Source: an uncultured Pseudomonadota bacterium (lineage in GTDB: Bacteria > Pseudomonadota > Alphaproteobacteria > Rs-D84). Taken from it: a stretch of 64,000 nt of DNA. Shown one piece after another: positions 1-58,958 of the stretch. Both the position numbers and the translations under genes were made by a program. The stretch covers positions 225,157 through 289,156 of the forward strand of contig CADCGT010000002.1 of assembly GCA_902801125.1 (NCBI GenBank). Direction: 5' to 3'. Below the pieces are notes generated by a model. The model worked only from the letters and a program-made list of their open reading frames with translations, was not told the DNA's origin and searched no databases. Every line of letters starts with the position of its first letter. Positions within the stretch are counted from its first letter, which is position 1.

Positions 1-1393
1 CTTTCCCAACGACAATTTCACCCGACACGCCGGCGTTTTCTGCGATCTGGGCACAGGGCGCAACAATCGCGCGGCGAACAATGTCGATTCCGACATTTTG
101 GTCTGTGTTTTCACCTTTGACATGGGCCAATGCAGAAACCGCACGAACCAATGCGACACCACCACCGGCAACAATGCCTTCGGCGACCGCGGCACGGGTT
201 GCCGCCAACGCGTCATCGACACGGTCTTTCTTTTCTTTAACCTCTACTTCGGTCATACCACCGACATGGATAACCGCCACCCCGCCGACCAGTTTGGCCA
301 ACCGTTCCGACAATTTTTCACGGTCATAGTCACTGGTTGCGTCTTTAATCTGTTTACGAATTTCATCGGCACGCGCGGAAATTGTACCCTTGTCCCCCGC
401 CCCACCGACAATAAGTGTGGACGATTTATCAACGACAATGCGCTTTGCCGAACCCAACACCGCCGGTGTAATGTTATCGAATGTCATACCCATATCGTCG
501 GAAATAACGGTTGCCCCGGTGACAATTGCGATATCTGCCAACATAGCCTTGCGACGGTCGCCGAATCCCGGTGCCTTGACCGCACAGACCTTTAATCCAC
601 CGCGCAGGCGGTTCAAAACCAATGTTGCCAATGCTTCGGATTCGACATCTTCGGCGATAATCAATAACGGCCGCCCCTGTTGTGCGATTGGTTCCAAAAT
701 TGGCAATAACGCCTGCAGGCCTGTGATTTTCTTTTCAGAAACCAACACCGCGGCATTATCCAATTCCGCCAACATTTTTTCGCTGTTGCTAACAAAATAC
801 GGCGACATGAAACCCTGGTCGAATTGCATACCTTCGACAACATCGATTTCGGTTTCCAAACCCTTGGCTTCTTCGACGGTAATAACACCTTCTTGACCGA
901 CACGTTCCATCGCGTCGGCGATTTTTTTACCAATGTCCGCGTCGCCATTTGCCGAAATTGTTGCGACCTGGGCAATTTCGGAAGCATTTTTCACCGGACG
1001 CGCATGCGATTCAATATCGGCAACAACCGCCCCCGTCGCCAGGTCTATACCGCGTTTGATATCCATCGGATTCATTCCCGCGGCAATAACGCGACGACCT
1101 TCGCGGACAATTTTTTGCGCAAGTACCGTTGCGGTTGTGGTTCCGTCGCCCGCATCATCACCGGCCTTTTTGGCAACCTCTTGAATCATACGGGCGCCGA
1201 TATTTTCCGCTGGGTCTTTCAAAGACACCGCCTTGGCAACCGTGACACCGTCCTTGGTTGCGACCGGTGCGCCATACGATTTATCGATTACAACCGTGCG
1301 ACCCTTGGGGCCCATAGTAATTTTCACCGCGTTTGCCAATTTATCAACACCCGCGGCCAATTTATCTGTATCAAAAACAATATCTTTCGCCAT
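1..1393 (-). CDS. groEL: Chaperonin GroEL, 3' part cut off by the window edge
   Basis: Minus-strand ATG at 1393 follows an AAGGA RBS. The translation [54 protein letters not shown]...[12 protein letters not shown] is canonical GroEL. The frame stays open to position 1, so with no stop in the window it is absent from the supplied ORF track. Confidence 0.95.
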
Positions 1394-3358: not shown

Positions 3359-3467
3359 ATTAAATCCTTTAATCACTGCGGCATAATTTATAACAAAAAT
3401 ATGAAAAAGTCAAGTATTGTTTTACTTTTTTCGCATATTTGTTTGGTGGGGCATTTGTTCCCATATC

Positions 3468-3496
3468 CTTGAATTTCAAAAATGCGCACTATATAT
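3468..3496 (+). promoter_or_regulatory. Candidate RpoH (sigma-32)-type promoter of clpB
   Basis: CTTGAA (3468-3473), a 15-nt spacer, then CTATATAT (3489-3496), about 30 nt upstream of the clpB ATG. Same motif as upstream of groES. Confidence 0.45.
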
Positions 3497-3525
3497 ATGC
3501 TTGATAAAAAACCAAGGGGGTTATT

Positions 3526-5583
3526 ATGAATCCAGAAGAAATGCAAGAAACGCCAGAGCAAGCCATTGCAAAATACACAACAGATTTTACAAAACTGGCA
3601 TCTGAGGGGAAACTGGACCCGGTTATTGGACGCGACGAAGAAATCCGCCGCACCATCCAGGTTTTATCGCGTCGAACCAAGAATAATCCGGTACTTATTG
3701 GGAACCCGGGGGTTGGCAAAACGGCAATCGTCGAAGGATTGGCGGAACGCATTATTTCGCGCGACATTCCGGAAAACCTGCAAAATAAAAAATTATTGTC
3801 GCTGGATTTGGGGGCGATGATGGCGGGCGCAATGTTTCGCGGTCAATTCGAATCCCGATTCAAGGCGATATTAAAGGCCGTCAAAGACGCAAATGGCGAA
3901 ATCATCCTGTTTATTGATGAATTACACACTTTGGTCGGTGCCGGCAAAGGCGAAGGCAGTATGGATGCCGGAAATCTTATTAAACCGATGTTGGCGCGTG
4001 GGGAATTGCACTGTTTGGGCGCAACGACACTTGACGAATATCGGCAATATATTGAAAAAGACCCGGCGTTGGCGCGACGTTTTCAACCGGTCTATGTTGA
4101 TGAACCGACGGTCGAAGACACAATTTCAATTCTGCGCGGATTAAAAGAAAAATACGAAGGTCATCATGGCGTGCGTATATCCGACGCGGCATTGGTTGCG
4201 GCGGTGCGATTGTCGAATCGTTATATCACCGACCGTTTTTTACCGGACAAGGCAATTGACCTTATGGACGAAGCCGCCGCCCGCGTTCGTATCGAAGTCG
4301 CATCCAAACCCGATGCCTTGGACGAAGTGGACCGGCATTTAATGCAATTAAAAATCGAACAACAGGCATTAAAGAAAGAAAAAGACGAAGATTCAAAAAA
4401 ACGCCTTGTTGATTTGGAAAAATTGATTGCAGAAACGGAAAAGAAATCCAACGAAATGACCGCGGCGTGGCGCGCAGAACAGGAAAAGATGCGCGGCCTG
4501 TCCGATGCGATGGCGGCACTGGACGCCGCCAAGGCCGAGGTTGCATCCGCCATGCGTGCCGGCGATTATGAAAAGGCGTCTGCTTTACAATATGGCAAGA
4601 TTCCAGAATTGGAAGAAAAAATTAAAAAAATGAATTCCGAATCACGCGAATATAAAACTGTATTGCCCGAACATATCGCGGCGGTGGTCAGCAAATGGAC
4701 CGGTGTCCCGGCCGATAAATTGACCGCGACCGAACAATCCAAATTGTTAAACATCGAAGACGAATTGCGTCGGCGTGTTGTCGGCCAAGATGCGGCTTTA
4801 TCGGTTGTTGCGCGTGCGATTCGTCGTTCGCGGGCGGGCCTTGCCGACCCACGCAGACCGTCGGGCAGTTTTATGTTCCTTGGGCCCACCGGTGTCGGCA
4901 AGACCGAGGTTGCAAAGGCATTGGCGGAATACCTGTTTAACGATGATACGGCAATGACGCGTATTGATATGAGTGAATATATGGAACCACATTCGGTTGC
5001 GCGCCTTATTGGTGCGCCCCCGGGGTATGTTGGGTATGATGCGGGTGGTGTCCTTACCGAATCGGTGCGCCGTCGTCCATATCAAGTGTTGCTTTTTGAT
5101 GAAATTGAAAAAGCACACCCCGATGTGTTCAATGTTTTCCTGCAAATATTGGATGATGGGCGCCTTACCGATGGCCAAGGTCACATTGTGAACTTTACCA
5201 ACACCATAATAATAATGACAAGTAATTTGCCAGACATGGCCGCGGTCAAGAAACATTTCCGTCCGGAATTTATAAACCGTATAGATGAAATTGTGTTCTT
5301 TAACCAATTGGGTCGTGATGTGATGGCGGGAATTGTGAACATTCAATTACGAAACCTGCGTACGCGATTGGCGGCGCGCCGTATAGAATTGAATGTGACC
5401 GATTCGGCAATAAAATGGTTGGGCGAAAACGGGTATGACCCGGCGTTTGGGGCCCGACCGTTGAAACGTCTTATTACATCGGCGGTGGAAGATAAAATTG
5501 CCGACCTGATTTTATCTGGCGATGTCACCGAAGGCGGCACCGTCTATGTCGACACCCACGGAAAAGAATTGGTTGTGAAATAG
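3526..5583 (+). CDS. clpB: ClpB disaggregase lacking the N-terminal domain
   Basis: [61 protein letters not shown] aligns with E. coli ClpB from about residue 150. Two AAA+ modules and a coiled-coil middle domain are present. AAGGGGG RBS. Confidence 0.93.
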
Positions 5584-5650
5584 TGATTAGTGGTTAGTCC
5601 GTCCCGGCACCGTTTGGTGCCGCGGCCGCGACGGGTGTTAGTGGTTAGTG
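5581..5650 (+). repeat. GTTAGTG-type composite repeat (direct repeats flanking a GC-rich hairpin)
   Basis: TAGTGATTAGTGGTTAGT-CCGTCCCGGCACCGTTTGGTGCCGCGGCCGCGACGGGT-GTTAGTGGTTAGTG. It is the reverse complement of the element at 21394-21481. Its first TAG is the clpB stop codon. Confidence 0.85.
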
Positions 5651-5691: not shown

Positions 5692-5810
5692 AAACCAAGG
5701 TTTAAAATCAACACTTTTTTTGAAAAAATCAAAATTTTGTTTTTGCGTAAAAACAATGTGTTATAAATTTCGGTTTTTCCGCCGGGGGCGTATAGAAAAA
5801 ACCTTGGTTT
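5692..5810. promoter_or_regulatory. Invertible-promoter-like element, copy 1 (orientation A relative to the downstream gene)
   Basis: AAACCAAGGTTT (5692-5703) and AAACCTTGGTTT (5799-5810) are perfect 12-bp inverted repeats around a 95-bp interior. That interior is homologous to those at 19576-19670 and 36890-36984. Confidence 0.7.
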
Positions 5811-5859
5811 ATTGTACACTATATTGTGTATAAAAAACGAAGGAACGAGGGGAAAATCC

Positions 5860-6341
5860 ATGAAAAAAATCTGTTTAATATTTGGTGGAATTTTGGCGAT
5901 TGCGGGCAACGCGTATGCCGTCACATCCACGGTGACCAGTAAAGATTATGTAGATACCCGGTATCTGGCACAAATGCATCTACACCGGGTACAACCGTCG
6001 TCACATATACAAATACCGCCGGCACAATTGGCGAAAGGGGAATTTGTAATGACCCCGATGAAGATGATTGTAATTTTGGGGATTTGGTGACCACATCGGC
6101 ATTGCATAATGCAACCAATAACCTGCCGACAACAATTACTACAAACAAAACCTGTGTCGGGTGGTTAGACGGGCAACCAAACACGGATGAAAATTGCATA
6201 CTGTGGCAATTGGTCGAACAAGATGTTTATGGCCGATGCACCAAAAATTCGGACTGTAATTGCAGTAATAGCCCCGACACACCATATGGTCACTGCAACG
6301 ACGGCGCATGCCGTTGCATGGCTTTTGCGCCCAGCAGATAA
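5860..6341 (+). pseudogene. Frameshifted member of the secreted TSKxYVD family with a Cys-rich C-terminal mini-domain
   Basis: MKKICLIFGGILAIAGNAYAVTSTVTSKDYVDTR (frame of 5860) continues in the frame of ORF 6084-6341 as SGTNASTPGTTVVTYTNTAGTIGERGI...LPTTITTNKTCVGW...ILWQL...NSDC. Both halves are collinear with the intact paralogue at 36327-36839. Confidence 0.65.
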
Positions 6342-8999: not shown

Positions 9000-10019
9000 A
9001 TCACATACAAACTTTTTTGGTTGGCCAAACAATATTCGCATTAATTTATTTTTGGGTTTTGCATCTATGGATTCAACCAAAAATTGCTTAAAGTTTCTGT
9101 TCATATTTGGATATGTTCCAAAACCCAATCTTTTCGCAGAATCGATATCTTGGGCAAACAAATTATCCCACCAATCCAAATACAATTTATGGTCCCGCCT
9201 GTACTTTTCTTCTTGGTCGGCGGTCATAACCGGTTCTGACAACATTTTGCAGTATAAATCATCATTTGAATCCAATTGTTTTATTTTTTCCAATACCTCA
9301 TCCAAACTCATTTCGTTTGCATTTATAAAACGTTTTGGATTGAATGAATCCGCAACCGATGGATCACCCCAATAAATTGGAATAGTATATGCCTGCAGGG
9401 CGGTCAATAACTTTTCACTGGTATAACCGCGATAGGTCGCGTTTTCCGATGCGATTGTAAATTTGTAATTTCTTTTTACCCGTTCATCCACAAATTTTTC
9501 GGCCAATTCAACATTCCGCAGATGTGTTCCCAACGCATCAACCGGTTTATATTGCGAAATCGCATAAAACAATCTGTCCCGCATTGGATGCGCATTTGGG
9601 TTTGTATAAATAAAATTACAAAACTTGGTTTTATGTTTCAATTCGTCACGTGCATCCGGGCATTTTATCCAAAAATCCGGTGTAAGGCGTTTATGGAAAA
9701 AATCTATCGTTGGCATACGAATAATTCTGTCATAACATTTTAAATCCCGGTCAAAAGCAATCGCATAATCAAACCAGTTCAAATCGGGTGCCATGGCTTC
9801 GCCACCATAGAAAATATTAATTGTTCGATTATTTGCCAATTTCAAAAATTGCCGATACAAATTCACATCTTTATAAATCCATTCGCTTACCACAAGATAA
9901 TCCGGATTGGTATCATCCCAAATTAAATTATATTTGTCCCGCGGAATCAGCAGATGTTCATACAAAAACCTGATATCATTATATAAAGGATGCAAAAAAT
10001 AAATCCTTATACCTTTCAT
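8985..10019 (-). CDS. GT10-family alpha-1,3-fucosyltransferase
   Basis: KFCNFIYTNPNAHPMRDRLF...YKFTIASENATYRGYTSEKLLTALQAYTIPIYWGDPSVADSFNPKRFINA closely parallels the Helicobacter FucT catalytic motifs. Confidence 0.85.
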   Translation of the reverse strand: MKGIRIYFLHPLYNDIRFLYEHLLIPRDKYNLIWDDTNPDYLVVSEWIYKDVNLYRQFLKLANNRTINIFYGGEAMAPDLNWFDYAIAFDRDLKCYDRIIRMPTIDFFHKRLTPDFWIKCPDARDELKHKTKFCNFIYTNPNAHPMRDRLFYAISQYKPVDALGTHLRNVELAEKFVDERVKRNYKFTIASENATYRGYTSEKLLTALQAYTIPIYWGDPSVADSFNPKRFINANEMSLDEVLEKIKQLDSNDDLYCKMLSEPVMTADQEEKYRRDHKLYLDWWDNLFAQDIDSAKRLGFGTYPNMNRNFKQFLVESIDAKPKNKLMRILFGQPKKFVCDKPVQ

Positions 10020-31596: not shown

Positions 31597-31626
31597 ACTA
31601 ACCACTTACACTAACCACTTACACTA
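31597..31626 (-). repeat. GTTAGTG-type repeat, variant unit (GTAAGTGGTTAGT)
   Basis: The plus strand reads ACTAACCACTTACACTAACCACTTACACTA. The terminal CTA is the complement of the TAG stop of the ppiD-like gene. Confidence 0.85.
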
Positions 31627-36326: not shown

Positions 36327-36839
36327 TTACATGCAACTGTCATAACAGACACAACTGTTGTTTCGGCACGTCCCGCCACATCCCATACCACGGGCAGAAC
36401 AAATACTGCCACAATCTGAATTCGTACTGCAGAAACCGCCGTCGCCATAAACGGTTTTATCGGTTAAATTCCACAGGATGCACTCGCCATTTACTTCTTG
36501 ATAACATGTTTTATATGTGACCGTTGTTGTCGGCAGCATCTGAGGAATAGCAGAGGAAAAATCACTAAGTTGCCCGACGGTAAGTAGTTTATTTGCATCG
36601 GTTTGCAGATTAACCGTTTGACCCGGTTCCAAAATTGCGCGTTCACTGAATTGCGCCTGGCCATTTTGCGTGCCGTTATATGTGACGACATTTCCGGTTG
36701 TGCCGGCGGTGATTTTATCTTGTTTCAACGCATCATGATTATCAACATATGTTTTTGATGTGACGGTTGTGTCCGCAAAGACCGAATTTATCGCGATAAC
36801 CGAGGCAATCGCACCAAGTAAGAATGATTTTTTTATCAT
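36327..36839 (-). CDS. Secreted TSKxYVD-family protein with a Cys-rich C-terminal mini-domain
   Basis: Signal peptide MIKKSFLLGAIASVIAINSVFA, then TTVTSKTYVDNHDALKQDKITAG. The C-terminal CSTNSDCGSICSARGMGCGGTCRNNSCVCYDSCM is very Cys-dense. Confidence 0.8.
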   Translation of the reverse strand: MIKKSFLLGAIASVIAINSVFADTTVTSKTYVDNHDALKQDKITAGTTGNVVTYNGTQNGQAQFSERAILEPGQTVNLQTDANKLLTVGQLSDFSSAIPQMLPTTTVTYKTCYQEVNGECILWNLTDKTVYGDGGFCSTNSDCGSICSARGMGCGGTCRNNSCVCYDSCM

Positions 36840-36877
36840 ATTTTTCCCCTATATTCCTATGTAAAAAAGTGTACAAT

Positions 36878-36996
36878 AAACCAAGGTTTTTTTACGCCTG
36901 AATTTTCAAAAAACCGAAAATTGCTAACACTTTGTTTTTACACAATAAAAAATTTTTGATTTTTTGAAAAAAAGTGTTGATTTTAAACCTTGGTTT
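36878..36996. promoter_or_regulatory. Invertible-promoter-like element, copy 3 (orientation A relative to its minus-strand gene)
   Basis: The 12-bp inverted repeats sit at 36878-36889 and 36985-36996. The plus-strand interior is nearly identical to the copy 2 plus strand, yet the associated gene lies on the opposite side. Confidence 0.75.
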
Positions 36997-37015
36997 TTTT
37001 ACGCCTTGGCGCACG

Positions 37016-37044
37016 AAAAAAACCCGCGGAAATCCGCGGGTTTT
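37016..37044 (-). terminator. GC hairpin terminator preceding inverton copy 3 (follows the autotransporter gene)
   Basis: AAAAAAACCCGCGG-AAAT-CCGCGGGTTTT. Confidence 0.75.
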
Positions 37045-37061
37045 ATCAAACAAATTTCGCA

Positions 37062-40000
37062 CTAGAATTCATATCTAATTCTTGCCCGTCCGGTTTGCGA
37101 TGTGAATCCTTCGCGGATTTCGATTTCATAGTTCACCGACAAATCCAATCCACCGGCGCGGATTCCCAAACCGCCACCAAATTCCGCCCCCAGGCGCGAC
37201 AACCGCGTCCCATCAAGCGCGTATGAATCTACACCCGGCAACAATATCGTCGCAACTTGTTCATCGGACATAAAGTCATATTTCACCGCATAGCGCAATT
37301 CTGGTTTCAACATCAATCCGCGATTCAGTTTAAACCCATATGTCCAACGCGTTTCCAAAACCGCGGTCATATAGTCACTGTCTTGCAGTTTGTTTTTGAT
37401 ACCCAAAGAATTCTTGTATTCATCGGCACTGATATGCATATAGCGCACACCAACCGCCGGCGTGATTCCGCCCGCGAAATCATAACCGGTCATAACCTGG
37501 CCACCATATGAACGCACATCATAATTCGCGTCTATATTCGTTCCCAACGCAACGGCACGTTCAGAATAATCGGACATCGTATAATTTGCCATCGCATTCA
37601 CGAACCAATCGGTCGGTTTATATTGGCCATATGCGAATATGGTCGAACTGTCAACTTCGGTATCACGCGCGGTTCCCGTTATATCGGAATGTGCATAAGA
37701 ATAACCGGCACCCAACGTCAACACGCGGTTCATTGTCATATCCACACCACCGGCAACCCCACGGGTATATCCACGGAACGCATCGTTTTGTTTAGATTTG
37801 TTATAAATACCCTGGGCCCAGACACCACCGGCGGTAATATCAACATCACCACCACCACGACCCAAGGTCAACGCCGTCAAACGACCCGCCGCAAGGTTTG
37901 CAACCGTGTTCTGGACATGCATCGCGACACTTTGGACAACGGATTCTGTTTCTGGGTGAATTGCCGCGTGCGCCTGTTCAACCGCCGCCGCCGTATCCGC
38001 ATCGCCAGACGCCAATTTATCCTGAATCGCATTTGCCAAATCGTTCAATTCATCCGACGAAGAATTGACAAGGTTTGCAACCGTCGTCGCGGCCGCGGCA
38101 CTTATGCCATTTTCCGCCGCAATATCTTCGGTTGACTTCATTGTCGCGGTAATCGTGTCAAAACCTTCGTTCCATTCGTAATCAAAAACGCCAGATGATA
38201 CAGCAACATTTGCATTATCAAACACCGCGCCTTGGAAAACATTATATTCGCCCGCCGCACGCAGGTCAAAATTCAAAGTTCCCGTGCCATCAAACGAATC
38301 GGAAATATCAAAGAACGCGAATTCACTAGGATTGTTTAATGTCGCATTCAATGTTCCATCCAATGTCATTGTCGCCTGGGTAATGGATGCGGTTCCCAAA
38401 TTAAGTGTTGCACCACTTGCAACATCCAATGTCCCGTTTCCCGTCACACCGCCATCCATTGTGGTCGTGGATCCATCGACAAATGTAATCCGGCCACGAT
38501 TATAAATATCGTTTGCCGAACCGTTTGCGGTATTACCCTGAAACACATTCGTTCCTGAAAATGTTATATTGCCAGCGTAATTGGCAATGGCACCACCATT
38601 TGATTCCGCACTGTTGTTTGTAAATGCTGCACTTGTTAAATCAACATCGCCCAGGTTGAACATTGCCCCCCCTTCATCCACAGCAATATTAGAATCAAAT
38701 GTCGAGGCACCATCAATTGTCAATGTTTCTTCGTTAAATACCGCGCCACCATATACGGCCGTATTACCACTGAACGACGCGCCCTGTTCAAAAACGATGC
38801 TGTTTTGGTTATTAATTGCACCACCCTGGGTTCCCTTATCCGCACTGCTTAATGCACTATTATTTGTAAAGGTTGCCAATTTTTTGAACACGATTTCGGC
38901 GCCATATGAATTTGCAATTGCGCCACCATATGCGCCGTTACCAGAATTCAAATCGGTTGCAACATTGGAATCAAATGTGACCGCATCATTAAACGTCAAT
39001 GTGCCACTGTTATAAATTGCGCCACCTTCGACATTATAACCGGTTGCGGTATTACCACGGAATAATGTATCACCATTGACAGTCATTATACCTTGATTCC
39101 ACACAGCGCCGCCCAAGGTTGAATTATATCCATCAGAATCGTCTGTATCGGCGAATGCCTTGTTATAATAAAAATTCACATTATTTAACGTAACCAAACC
39201 GTCAACAAGTGAACTTTCATTTGCAATTGCGCCCCCCTGTAATGCCGAATTACCCTTGGTATTATCATTTACATCACCAAATGTAGTATTCGATATGACC
39301 ATTGTCACGGATGGCACATCCAAATAATCGTCATCCCCAGAATTAAATATTGCACCACCTTGGGATTCCCAGGTAATGTTTGTCGTCTTGTTGCCGGTGA
39401 ACACCGCACCATCAATTGTTGCGGTACCATAGTTGTAAATTGCGCCACCACGGGCACTCGCCACATTGGAATCAAACAGCCCACCATTAACGGTCAAATC
39501 ACCAATAGATTCGATTTCCCCATCATAGTTTAAACTAACATAATTATAAATGGCACCGCCATTTTCCGACGCCGTATTATTCTTAAATTCGTTATTGTTT
39601 ACCGTTAACACACTCTCGTTATAGATGGCACCACCATTTGATTCCGCAGCATTATTATTAAAATGCGAATTTTCCACCCACAACTTGGCGTTATTACCAA
39701 CCGAATCTGTCCAACCTTCAACAAAAATCGCCCCACCCAGATTTGCATCATTATTATTAAAGTAAGAATCATTTATATAAGCATAGCCTGCTTTTGCATC
39801 ACTATCATAGACAGAATTAAAAAATGCACCGCCACGCGTTCCTGCACTGTTGTATTCAAATGTGGAACTTAAAATATCCACCTTGGCCCCCTCAGAACTG
39901 TTTGTTCCACGGCCACTGTAATTCGTATCCAACCAATAATTAATTGGTCGGGTCGCCACCGCGCCACCGATTGTTCCGGAACTGTTGTGGCTAAAAATAC

Positions 40001-40481
40001 TTTCCGATATAACTGTCTGACTTTCGGAACCAAGAAATAATGCGCCGGCACCATCACCTAAATTGGCATAATTTGCGGTTGCCCGGTTATTCGAAAATGT
40101 GGAATTTGATACGGAACTGCCCGGGGAAAATATCGCAACCGCACCAAAATCACCGGCCGAATTATCTGTAAAACTGGAATTATCTATGGTCACCGAATAA
40201 GTTCCACCATTTTTATAGGCCGTTAAACTGTTATCATATAAAACGGCGGCGGCACCGGAACTATTACCGGAAAACTCACTGTTTTTAATAACCAATTTAT
40301 TATATGACAAAATAACGCCACCTGTACTGCTGTTTTCAATATTTGTTGCAGAAACACCATCCAAAACAGTATCTTCATTCAAAACCTGCCTTTCGGTTAT
40401 TTCTTCTGCCAACGCGGGCAACACCAATAATGCCGGCAACACAGATATACCAAACAAAATATTATGAAATGTTTTTTGCAT
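37062..40481 (-). CDS. Autotransporter with polymorphic-membrane-protein (Pmp-type GGAI/FxxN) repeats
   Basis: Signal peptide MQKTFHNILFGISVLPALLVLPALA. Contains many GGAIYN/GGAIFN/GGAIAN plus FxxN repeats. The C-terminal beta-barrel domain ends in RARIRYEF. Confidence 0.88.
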   Translation of the reverse strand: MQKTFHNILFGISVLPALLVLPALAEEITERQVLNEDTVLDGVSATNIENSSTGGVILSYNKLVIKNSEFSGNSSGAAAVLYDNSLTAYKNGGTYSVTIDNSSFTDNSAGDFGAVAIFSPGSSVSNSTFSNNRATANYANLGDGAGALFLGSESQTVISESIFSHNSSGTIGGAVATRPINYWLDTNYSGRGTNSSEGAKVDILSSTFEYNSAGTRGGAFFNSVYDSDAKAGYAYINDSYFNNNDANLGGAIFVEGWTDSVGNNAKLWVENSHFNNNAAESNGGAIYNESVLTVNNNEFKNNTASENGGAIYNYVSLNYDGEIESIGDLTVNGGLFDSNVASARGGAIYNYGTATIDGAVFTGNKTTNITWESQGGAIFNSGDDDYLDVPSVTMVISNTTFGDVNDNTKGNSALQGGAIANESSLVDGLVTLNNVNFYYNKAFADTDDSDGYNSTLGGAVWNQGIMTVNGDTLFRGNTATGYNVEGGAIYNSGTLTFNDAVTFDSNVATDLNSGNGAYGGAIANSYGAEIVFKKLATFTNNSALSSADKGTQGGAINNQNSIVFEQGASFSGNTAVYGGAVFNEETLTIDGASTFDSNIAVDEGGAMFNLGDVDLTSAAFTNNSAESNGGAIANYAGNITFSGTNVFQGNTANGSANDIYNRGRITFVDGSTTTMDGGVTGNGTLDVASGATLNLGTASITQATMTLDGTLNATLNNPSEFAFFDISDSFDGTGTLNFDLRAAGEYNVFQGAVFDNANVAVSSGVFDYEWNEGFDTITATMKSTEDIAAENGISAAAATTVANLVNSSSDELNDLANAIQDKLASGDADTAAAVEQAHAAIHPETESVVQSVAMHVQNTVANLAAGRLTALTLGRGGGDVDITAGGVWAQGIYNKSKQNDAFRGYTRGVAGGVDMTMNRVLTLGAGYSYAHSDITGTARDTEVDSSTIFAYGQYKPTDWFVNAMANYTMSDYSERAVALGTNIDANYDVRSYGGQVMTGYDFAGGITPAVGVRYMHISADEYKNSLGIKNKLQDSDYMTAVLETRWTYGFKLNRGLMLKPELRYAVKYDFMSDEQVATILLPGVDSYALDGTRLSRLGAEFGGGLGIRAGGLDLSVNYEIEIREGFTSQTGRARIRYEF

Positions 40482-45747: not shown

Positions 45748-45828
45748 CCACTACCCACTAACACCCGTCGCGGCACGCCGCGCCACGGTCGTGACGGACT
45801 AACCACTAACACTAACCACTAACACTAA
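45748..45828 (-). repeat. GTTAGTG-type composite repeat with a variant central hairpin
   Basis: CCACTACCCACTAAC-ACCCGTCGCGGCACGCCGCGCCACGGTCGTGACGG-ACTAACCACTAACACTAACCACTAACACTAA. Confidence 0.85.
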
Positions 45829-58932: not shown

Positions 58933-58958
58933 ACTAACCACTAACACTAACCACTAAC
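58933..58958 (-). repeat. GTTAGTG-type repeat (two 13-nt units), directly upstream of a start codon
   Basis: The plus strand reads ACTAACCACTAACACTAACCACTAAC. On the gene strand GTTAGTGGTTAGTGTTAGTGGTTAGTGATA precedes the ATG at 58928. Confidence 0.85.

Follow-up and report, generated by a model that had tools for sequence, protein, structure and literature searches.

A predicted family of compact invertible promoter elements beside secreted-protein genes of an uncultured alphaproteobacterium

The 64,000-nt stretch of contig CADCGT010000002.1 analyzed here (the window, numbered from its first base; G+C = 44%) comes from an uncultured alphaproteobacterium and contains, at 36878-36996, a short segment bounded by inverted repeats and located directly upstream of a small secreted-protein gene. 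The interior of this segment reads almost the same on the plus strand as that of a second segment at 19564-19682, although the two adjoining genes lie on opposite sides of their segments. The locus therefore raises the question of whether the interior can turn between fixed flanks and, if so, what the turning does to the gene and which enzyme carries it out. We consider it probable that 36878-36996 is an invertible promoter element that is flipped by a serine invertase, carries one part of a split promoter, and belongs to a family of ∼80 such elements in rumen metagenome contigs. The switching of orientation rests on the comparison of sequences between loci and assemblies, while the promoter logic is predicted from the sequence itself.

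Orientation of the repeat-bounded segments

Three cassettes of this kind are present in the window, at 5692-5810 (copy 1), 19564-19682 (copy 2), and 36878-36996 (copy 3). Each is 119 bp long and consists of the 12-bp cores AAACCAAGGTTT and AAACCTTGGTTT enclosing a 95-bp interior. When up to one mismatch is allowed, AAACCAAGGTTT or its complement occurs seven times in the window, compared to 0.75 occurrences expected. Six of the seven are exact, and they form three pairs with 95 bp between the cores (5692/5799, 19564/19671, and 36878/36985). The seventh core-like site, AAACCAAGTTTT at 9620-9631, has one mismatch, lies without a partner within a fucosyltransferase gene, and is probably a chance match. 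A 29-nt block of the interior, TTGATTTTTTGAAAAAAAGTGTTGATTTT, is found three times where 0 are expected, on the minus strand in copy 1 and on the plus strand in copies 2 and 3. In copy 3, the perfect inverted 12-bp cores are located 38 nt upstream of the start of the gene at 36327-36839 and delimit a short repeat-bounded segment of the type that defines an inverton. Across the three copies, the distance from core to ATG is 38-49 nt.

The sequences that a first-pass annotation had quoted for these segments were all recovered where it had placed them, and the comparison of the paralogues agrees with its description. The interiors at 36890-36984 and 19576-19670, which it had called nearly identical on the plus strand, match at 86/95 positions (90.5%) when aligned directly, as opposed to 62% when one of them is reverse-complemented. 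The flanks, by contrast, are kept relative to the gene, as had also been claimed: the 30-nt flanks of copies 2 and 3 show reverse-complement identities of 83% on the distal side and 73% on the proximal side, with lower values on the same strand (67% left/left and 57% right/right). The hairpin that had been assigned to the distal flank is located at 37019-37044, and its 12-nt arms are fully complementary. The annotation had named inversion of the flanks along with the interiors as the outcome that would remove its argument. With the flanks aligned apart from the interiors, this outcome was not borne out. The copy 1 gene is on the plus strand, and its interior is opposite to that of the other two copies on that strand, with 80% identity as the reverse complement. 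Relative to their genes, therefore, the interiors of copies 1 and 3 are oriented alike (state 1), and that of copy 2 is in the opposite orientation (state 2).

The internal flip had been proposed on the basis of paralogues, and it is now backed by opposite orientations at the same locus for copies 1 and 2. At the copy-1 locus, the metagenome contigs L144 and L145 show 0 mismatches over a distal flank of 108 nt and over the 973 nt that cover the proximal flank and the gene, and their ClpB-type protein is identical, while their 95-bp interiors are exact reverse complements of one another. A further contig, L147, is an exact flip of copy 1 as it occurs in the window. At the copy-2 locus, L139 encodes an identical OmpA-family gene product and has the same intergenic sequence as far as it reads, with the opposite end of the interior: from the distal core it continues into AAAATCAACAC... 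and the contig stops 22 nt later, whereas the window, L004, and L138 continue into TTTTACGC.... Three further contig pairs have upstream flanks that are 96-98% identical and are in opposite states. Likewise, in L030 and L083, both from a single metagenome, the 63-nt proximal flanks are identical and the interiors are reverse complements with one mismatch. Both orientations between unchanged flanks, the hallmark of an inverton, are found for the family, for copy 1, and for copy 2. The inversion is real, as both orientations occur at identical loci. For copy 3 itself, we infer that the segment still flips.

An additional contig, L146, folds back on itself (3380-3568): 70/70 positions of the right flank agree with the reverse-complemented left flank. 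This is best explained as an assembly artefact that signals both junction types in one sample, since a fold-back path in the assembly graph needs both of them; both would therefore be present in the sample from which L146 derives. Contigs frequently end in one of two places, the cassette or the conserved 5' region of the gene, as seen in L004, L005, L118-L120, L139, and L142. Cassettes of this type break metagenome assemblies and yield fold-back contigs.

The family extends well beyond the window. A metagenome scan for two cores 85-110 nt apart returned 101 loci, 78 to 81 of which, depending on the filter, belong to the inverton family of the window. Among the 108 pattern matches given by the loci and the window together, the interior is 95 bp long in 69 and 94 bp in 15. 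Many dispersed elements thus share one repeat consensus (three in 64 kb, and the 78 to 81 metagenome members), which is the arrangement found in the Mpi regulon of Bacteroides. The downstream genes start with near-identical signal peptides, e.g., MKKFLFILFG...PTSKSYVD, and then diverge. Several assemblies with the same proteins are labelled as the STEW19 series, which, from these labels, we take to be cattle-rumen assemblies. A scan of a genome collection with a 20-nt core-plus-interior pattern gave only two chance matches, one in Clostridia and one in Alcanivoracaceae.

The interior consists of a conserved half (A) and a variable half (B), and its history appears to differ from that of its surroundings. 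At the copy-3 locus, the proximal 300 nt of the window and of L001 are 99.0% identical, while the interiors are only 81% identical (74.5% in the B half); the interiors compared are those at 36890-36984 of the window, 2857-2951 of L001, and 5970-6064 of L116. The copy-3 interior of the window is, on the other hand, 94% identical to interiors at the unrelated loci L077, L045, and L010. Because interiors are more alike across loci than between orthologous loci, inter-locus exchange seems likely. The pattern suggests that interiors behave in evolution as mobile cassettes, which pass from one locus to another either at the cores or by gene conversion.

Promoter halves, crossover core, and recombinase

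If the segment turns, the next question is what it carries. Across 33 unique interiors, the A half is conserved at ≥90% with the consensus AAAaTTTTGATTTTTTGaAAAAAAGTGTTGAyTTT. This consensus comprises an A/T-tract block similar to an upstream promoter (UP) element and then, at a distance of two bases from the core, TTGACT or TTGATT. The B half varies in sequence and is constant in length. In the gene-side flank, TACGCT is present at +3 or TACACT at +4 from the core, with T at position 6 in 41/41 cases; in the distal flank of the same subfamily, TACGC is followed by C, G, or A in 41/41 cases and by T in 0/41. The pattern is not confined to one subfamily. Exactly one TTGNNN end is found in 76/92 unique invertons from all subfamilies, and exactly one TAnnnT flank, +3 or +4 from the core, in 79/92, on the gene side in 31/31 cases. 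The -35-like hexamers at the ends of the invertons are TTGACT (47), TTGATT (19), TTGCAA (9), and TTGAAT (5). The flank hexamers, TACACT, TACGCT, TATCAT, TATAAT, TATGAT, and TACCAT, vary at positions 3-5 only, and a perfect TATAAT occupies the predicted place in L133 and L134, both of which are adjacent to a recombinase gene.

Housekeeping promoters in the window have the form TTGACA/T-16..18-TATAAT-like and are located 24-51 nt before the start codon (99-109 nt in two others). This pattern is matched by only one of the three family genes, that of copy 2, whose ATG is preceded at 28 nt by TTGATT-18-TACACT. Copies 1 and 3, when flipped on paper, acquire the arrangement of copy 2, and the state-2 contigs L145 and L147 show an arrangement of the copy 2 type at copy 1. 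A consensus promoter scan found none at copy 3 and gave weak matches inside the copy-2 interior (TTGAAA-17-CATATT) and across the distal core of copy 1; the split promoter becomes visible only after comparison of the family. The 38-49 nt between core and ATG are too short to hold a complete promoter in fixed DNA, and the switch is therefore read as a split promoter. The first-pass annotation had been unable to find a -35/-10 pair reading into the copy 3 gene, which agrees with our results because the candidate -35 at 36977-36982 is on the plus strand and faces away from the gene, as it would in an OFF state. Within the family, 63 invertons are in an OFF-like and 10 in an ON-like state.

In copy 3, these elements are arranged as follows. 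The fixed gene-proximal flank (36840-36877, 38 nt, minus strand) contains a Shine-Dalgarno sequence AGGGG at 36846-36850 and the candidate -10 TACACT at 36868-36873. It is followed by the gene-proximal core at 36878-36889, which is AAACC-AA-GGTTT on the plus strand, with the presumed crossover dinucleotide at 36883-36884. The interior (36890-36984) is 95 bp long, 78% A+T, and in state 1, with the variable B half on the gene side; the A half (36948-36984, plus strand) comprises the UP-like A/T-tract block and the -35-like TTGATT at 36977-36982, 2 bp from the distal core. This core, at 36985-36996, is AAACC-TT-GGTTT on the plus strand and has its central dinucleotide at 36990-36991. Beyond it, the fixed distal flank (36997-37018, plus strand) carries the -10-like TACGCC at 37000-37005, which lacks the final T. 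The copy 2 cassette (plus strand, state 2) has TTGATT at 19663-19668, an 18-nt spacer that contains the core, and TACACT at 19687-19692, 28 nt before the ATG at 19721. The copy 1 cassette (plus strand, state 1) has its -35-like hexamer on the minus strand at 5706-5711 and a fixed TACACT at 5815-5820, ahead of the gene at 5860-6341.

These features can be assembled into a mechanism. The recombinase would be a small serine enzyme of the Mpi/Din type whose gene lies outside the window. It would pair AAACC-AA-GGTTT with its inverted copy and cleave at the central dinucleotide, and the 107 bp from one crossover point to the other would be turned. The turning segment would bring the UP-like tract and the -35, and the fixed gene-side flank would supply the -10 TAnnnT, 3-4 bp beyond the core, such that the recombination core itself would serve as the 17-18-bp promoter spacer. 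The -35 would thus be located on the turning segment and the -10 on fixed DNA. With the -35 end on the gene side, as in copy 2, TTGATT-18-TACACT would be assembled and the gene would be ON. In copies 1 and 3, where this end is located away from the gene, the -35 would face a -10-like hexamer without the final T, and then a terminator, and the gene would be OFF. Copy 2 accordingly reads as ON and copy 1 as OFF, and copy 3, where the -35 faces TACGCC and the terminator, is probably OFF. Since each switch would control one member of the secreted-protein family, the result would be combinatorial phase variation. To our knowledge, a 107-bp segment would be the most compact serine-invertase switch described.

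The crossover core points to the type of enzyme. The hixL site is TTCTTGAAAACC AA GGTTTTTGATAA, and cixL and pixL likewise contain AAACC AA GGTTT (PMC3241671 Table 3); the central AA of Din-family sites is the point of strand exchange (PMC3241671). The 12 bp in the middle of hixL, cixL, and pixL read exactly as the cassette core AAACC-AA-GGTTT does, and the outer half-site positions TTC/GAA of Din-family sites are absent from the cassettes in the window. Hin requires a 65-bp Fis-bound enhancer, with ∼100-bp loops that are helped by HU (PMC3798978). An enhancer and loops of this size cannot, therefore, fit into a 95-bp interior.

Genes with a resolvase domain are found beside invertons with the same core in L078, L098, L108, L112, L133, and L134, as determined by reading the intergenic regions. 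L078 is a clear member of the family, in which the contig end cuts the resolvase-domain gene at 92 aa; with this 92-aa fragment as the query, only fragments were among the matches. In L098, L108, and L112, a YadA-anchor adhesin gene, the intergenic region, the recombinase gene, and a TM2 protein gene follow one another, with LigA in the L108 group, and the sister loci L109-L111 and L113-L115 have the same gene order. The L098 protein matches NF009949 ('master DNA invertase Mpi family') over its full length with 264.6 bits, its best NCBIfam model, and a protein from related contigs, P0154, does so with 258.3 bits, also over the full length; both scores are below the cut-off of 272. The genomic context of P0154 (L126) was set aside as uninformative, as it consists of a degenerate cassette in a mobile-element-like setting. 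The nearest solved structure to the L098 protein is that of the Gin invertase. Among the best 120 of thousands of matches, the Alphaproteobacterial recombinases are mutually 74-100% identical, and those that carry a name in their source, 'DNA invertase Pin-like' or else 'recombinase family protein [Alphaproteobacteria bacterium]', come from metagenome-assembled genomes (MAGs) of Alphaproteobacteria. The ClpP of the window belongs to a 90%-identity cluster in which the members with a name are likewise 'Alphaproteobacteria bacterium' MAGs, in line with the host group of the window. The link between invertase genes and this core is thus directly observed in related genomes. An enzyme of the Mpi/Din type in the genome of the window presumably flips these sites, and at this crossover point.

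The same core also occurs in a separate lineage of low G+C, where a 189-aa Hin-like gene (E about 5e-33 to Hin) lies beside a cassette upstream of a membrane-protein gene. The cassettes next to such genes have a 94- or 95-bp interior (L065 3232-3349, L068 12105-12223, L088 307-425, and L092 10328-10446). The compact geometry therefore occurs with a different invertase clade as well.

Alternative explanations

The arrangement of the paralogues could in principle result from plain duplication of the whole intergenic region, in some cases reverse-complemented together with the gene, without any internal flip. Genes and flanks do form a duplicated 5' module in which the signal peptide and flanks are conserved. 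However, between copies 2 and 3 it is the interiors that align directly, whereas the flanks do so only after reverse complementation, and identical loci differ solely by the exact reverse complement of the interior. Plain duplication is refuted by these observations and retains a negligible probability. It is also very improbable that the segments are elements resembling miniature inverted-repeat transposable elements (MITEs), with terminal inverted repeats and inserted in either orientation, that do not act as switches. The many dispersed copies with inverted ends would suit such elements, as would the greater likeness of interiors across different loci (94%) than between orthologous loci (81%) and the frequent breaks of contigs at the element. 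Their insertion would not, however, account for sequence outside the repeats that is conserved relative to the gene, including the promoter-like hexamer, and the difference between L144 and L145 would presuppose that an element had left and re-entered the locus with base-pair precision. No target-site duplications were noticed in the flanks that were read, although no dedicated search was made, and the genes neighboring such elements encode invertases rather than transposases.

Two further explanations accept the inversion and differ in what controls the gene or what turns the segment. Control might be exerted by a complete internal promoter, by a bound regulator or antisense transcription, or with state 1 as the ON state, which we regard as unlikely, albeit the most serious of the alternatives. 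A simple consensus scan does find TTGAAA-17-CATATT in the copy-2 interior, most family members are in state 1 (63 vs 10), and some B ends carry TTGCAA. Yet the match in copy 2 sits in the variable, nonconserved B half, whereas the canonical -35 ends the conserved block and lies 17-18 bp from TAnnnT in the gene-side flank only, and this hexamer is a perfect TATAAT in the recombinase-adjacent loci. A predominance of silent members is, moreover, the usual pattern in families of variable surface proteins. As for the enzyme, it is improbable that a tyrosine recombinase (Xer- or Fim-like) or rare homologous recombination, rather than a serine invertase, turns the segment. In favor of this, XerD-like genes are located 2-4 kb from invertons in L017 and L085, and no serine recombinase was found in the window. 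The XerD-like proteins match E. coli XerD at ∼1e-30, however, and were rejected as the enzyme because they are probably housekeeping. The core is a perfect dyad around a 2-bp asymmetric center and is identical to Din crossover sites, whereas sites of tyrosine recombinases have 6-8-bp spacers, and 12-bp repeats are too short for RecA-dependent exchange. Finally, serine invertase genes adjoin such cores in three gene contexts of one Alphaproteobacterial recombinase clade, and a Hin-like gene does so in the separate low-G+C lineage.

Several observations weigh against a serine-invertase-driven split promoter and lower our confidence in it. Of the four assemblies that span copy 3 (the window, L116, L001/L117, and L141), all show state 1. 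No recombinase was found in the 64-kb window by Pfam searches of ∼50 open reading frames (ORFs) or by local phmmer searches with Hin, FimB, and XerD, and none of the recombinase homologues listed could be tied to the genome of the window. The L098 protein scores 7 bits under the NCBI equivalog cut-off of 272. With sites only 107 bp apart, synapsis is physically demanding, and helical phasing of A-tracts in the interiors gave no signal above shuffled controls, in a comparison whose control was itself biased. On the promoter side, TACGCT and TACACT are mediocre -10 hexamers, and some B ends of the 94-bp subfamily carry TTGCAA too, in which case the two states would differ only in the UP-like tract. 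Taken together with the evidence above, these points leave the invertible split promoter as the reading that we favor. We give an even chance to a fuller version of it for uncultured gut and rumen Alphaproteobacteria. In this version, a master serine invertase resembling Mpi would recognize hix-type cores, and these cores would at the same time form the spacer of a split sigma-70 promoter. The resulting 107-bp switch would be free of an internal enhancer, its interiors would be exchanged between loci, and such switches would set the combinatorial expression of a large family of secreted proteins, some of them with a defensin- or scorpion-toxin-like end.

Target genes, neighboring sequences, and known systems

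The three inverton-linked genes encode a signal peptide and an SKxYVD motif and are the only genes in the window with this motif. In the target family as a whole, the signal peptide and the N-terminal motif are common and the C-termini are variable. Searches of Pfam, PHROG, NCBIfam, and PDB sequences gave no significant match for the target proteins. By its translation, the copy 3 gene (36327-36839, minus strand) specifies a secreted protein of 170 aa in which a signal peptide and the motif TSKTYVD are combined with a Cys-rich C-terminus. The tail of this protein, residues 130-170 (window 36327-36450), has the pattern C..CxxxC..GxC..CxC. In the AlphaFold model, fair confidence (pLDDT 65-78) is confined to this tail, which is predicted to adopt a beta-alpha-beta-beta arrangement. 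Its Foldseek matches in the PDB are almost all scorpion K-channel toxins and plant defensins; the top matches have a TM-score on the target of 0.72-0.74 and an rmsd of 1.3 Å over 32 residues, with E above 0.5, and phmmer touches the pea defensin 1jkz with E = 0.065. On the basis of this model, the tail may represent a bacterial counterpart of defensin-like domains, carried by a secreted protein that is phase-variable.

The copy 2 gene (19721-20659, plus strand) encodes a protein whose residues ∼120-306 (window 20080-20640) form a C-terminal domain of ∼190 aa that starts with LPTGYTALEYLESTGTQYIDTG and has no Pfam model. This domain matches 16,508 cluster representatives at E ≤ 0.001 and is a widespread unannotated repeat; giant proteins, the longest of ∼5,300 aa, contain as many as 12 separate matching stretches. 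The copy 1 gene is frameshifted in the window by a 28-nt deletion (5940-5970). L005 contains the missing gaggttggcaaaaaacaaaacacaattc, and the gene is intact, with 169 aa, in L144 and L145; the frameshift may be genuine and mark a pseudogene, or it may result from an assembly collapse in the repeated 5' region. The invertons with a TATAAT flank in L133 (4735-4852 and 5781-5898) and L134 (727-844) face small genes without an evident signal peptide, which differ between strains (111 aa vs 147 aa). The switch is therefore not limited to secreted proteins.

Each cassette adjoins the hairpin terminator of the gene upstream, which encodes a ClpB-type ATPase at copy 1, an OmpA-family protein at copy 2, and an autotransporter at copy 3. 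The last of these (37062-40481, minus strand; Pfam PF03797 and PF02415, with Chlamydia PMP repeats) lies outside the switch. Its terminator hairpin (37019-37044, minus strand), 17 nt past the stop codon, has 12-nt arms that are 100% complementary, followed by a T run on the minus strand, and this predicted terminator shields the copy 3 switch from upstream read-through. An Rfam search gave no match at threshold, and the sub-threshold matches were driven by the terminator. In L001/L117 (ERZ27280606 k141_1081702), a DUF3078 gene replaces the autotransporter gene before the copy-3 gene, cassette, and hairpin. L141, from the same sample, has the autotransporter version. In L001/L117, synteny with the window (37045-40481) is broken just past the hairpin. 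This difference may reflect strain variation or a rearrangement near the switch.

Two other repeats deserve mention. The 13-mer GTTAGTGGTTAGT occurs in tandem copies, 15 in the window compared to 0.04 expected, at six intergenic sites (5586-5649, 19477-19515, 21394-21470, 31597-31622, 45750-45823, and 58933-58958). Two of the sites are just upstream of invertons, at copies 1 and 2, between the stop codon and the terminator. The motif is also present in the metagenome relatives, and it looks like a family of the repetitive extragenic palindrome (REP) type. The remaining hits of the metagenome scan, finally, carry the same 12-mers inside long unrelated palindromes and were rejected as nonhomologous. 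G+C-rich palindromes of the form GGG-core-CCCCTGCGACCCCTTCCTTT...AAAGGAAGGGGTCGCAGGGG-core-CCC occur in L007, L008, L016, L029, L033, L034, L043, L057, L058, L061, L087, L089, L091, L093, and L094. An ORF neighboring the palindrome in L034 seems to resemble a viral packaging ATPase. These palindromes are an unrelated repeat family, possibly of giant-virus origin.

A literature search found no paper on this inverton family or its host group. The closest known systems are from other bacteria. Mpi of Bacteroides fragilis inverts 13 regions (PMC4747536; PMC10403206). The family described here resembles that regulon in that one small serine recombinase, apart from most of its targets, would act on many scattered short promoter segments, each of which toggles one surface-related locus ON or OFF. 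It differs in its host, which belongs to the Alphaproteobacteria rather than the Bacteroidota, in its core, AAACCWWGGTTT, which is not the Bacteroides repeat (ARACGTWCGT), and in its targets, which are single secreted-protein genes rather than polysaccharide operons. The promoter, moreover, appears to be split across the recombination site here and lies wholly inside the segment there, and only 107 bp separate the crossover points here. In gut Bacteroidota, the control of phase-variable promoters by a master invertase is a characteristic feature. Its use by uncultured Alphaproteobacteria of the rumen and gut, with a Hin-type core and an Mpi-like enzyme, would indicate either convergence or transfer between gut lineages.

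With the Din systems (Hin/hix, Gin/gix, Cin/cix, and Pin/pix), the family shares the inner 12 bp of the core, though not the outer TTC...GAA positions, and, as in the case of Hin, inverted sites around a promoter-bearing segment; the enzyme in related contigs is likewise a serine recombinase of ∼190-200 aa with a C-terminal helix-turn-helix. The segments of Gin, Cin, and Pin are a few kb long, and that of Hin is about 1 kb (PMC2427008), compared to 107 bp here, with no room for the 65-bp Fis-bound enhancer. In addition, the recombinase gene would lie outside the segment and would have many targets per genome, not one. In Din systems, the invertase gene is located inside or beside the segment; the window has no such gene, and in related contigs it adjoins one inverton, outside the segment. 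A serine invertase that apparently synapses sites 107 bp apart, with the classical enhancer excluded, should be of interest to recombination specialists.

A surface-protein multigene family with independent switching, and with a separate small invertible promoter for most of its members, is also known from the mpl (P35) lipoproteins of Mycoplasma penetrans, with 38 mpl genes (PMC2268961). There, however, the candidate enzymes are tyrosine (Xer-like) recombinases, the repeats are unrelated, and the host is a wall-less Mollicute. The E. coli fimS element and the invertons catalogued by PhaseFinder and DeepInverton are similar in that a short promoter segment with inverted repeats is located upstream of an adhesin or surface gene. 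In the case of fimS, however, the whole promoter lies on a segment of 314 bp, and inversion depends on two tyrosine recombinases, FimB and FimE. Most catalogued invertons are <300 nt (PMC11602134).

The novelty with respect to these systems lies in the host group, in the repeat when compared to Mpi, in the segment size and the lack of room for an enhancer when compared to Din, in the type of target, and in the putative split promoter. A recombination site that apparently sits in the promoter spacer, such that half of the promoter is moved, would, if true, be an economical switch and a possible part for synthetic biology. The association with invertons also marks a large unannotated family of secreted proteins as variable surface or effector molecules. 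Among the known systems, the closest in function is the Bacteroides Mpi regulon, and the closest in site chemistry are the Din invertases.

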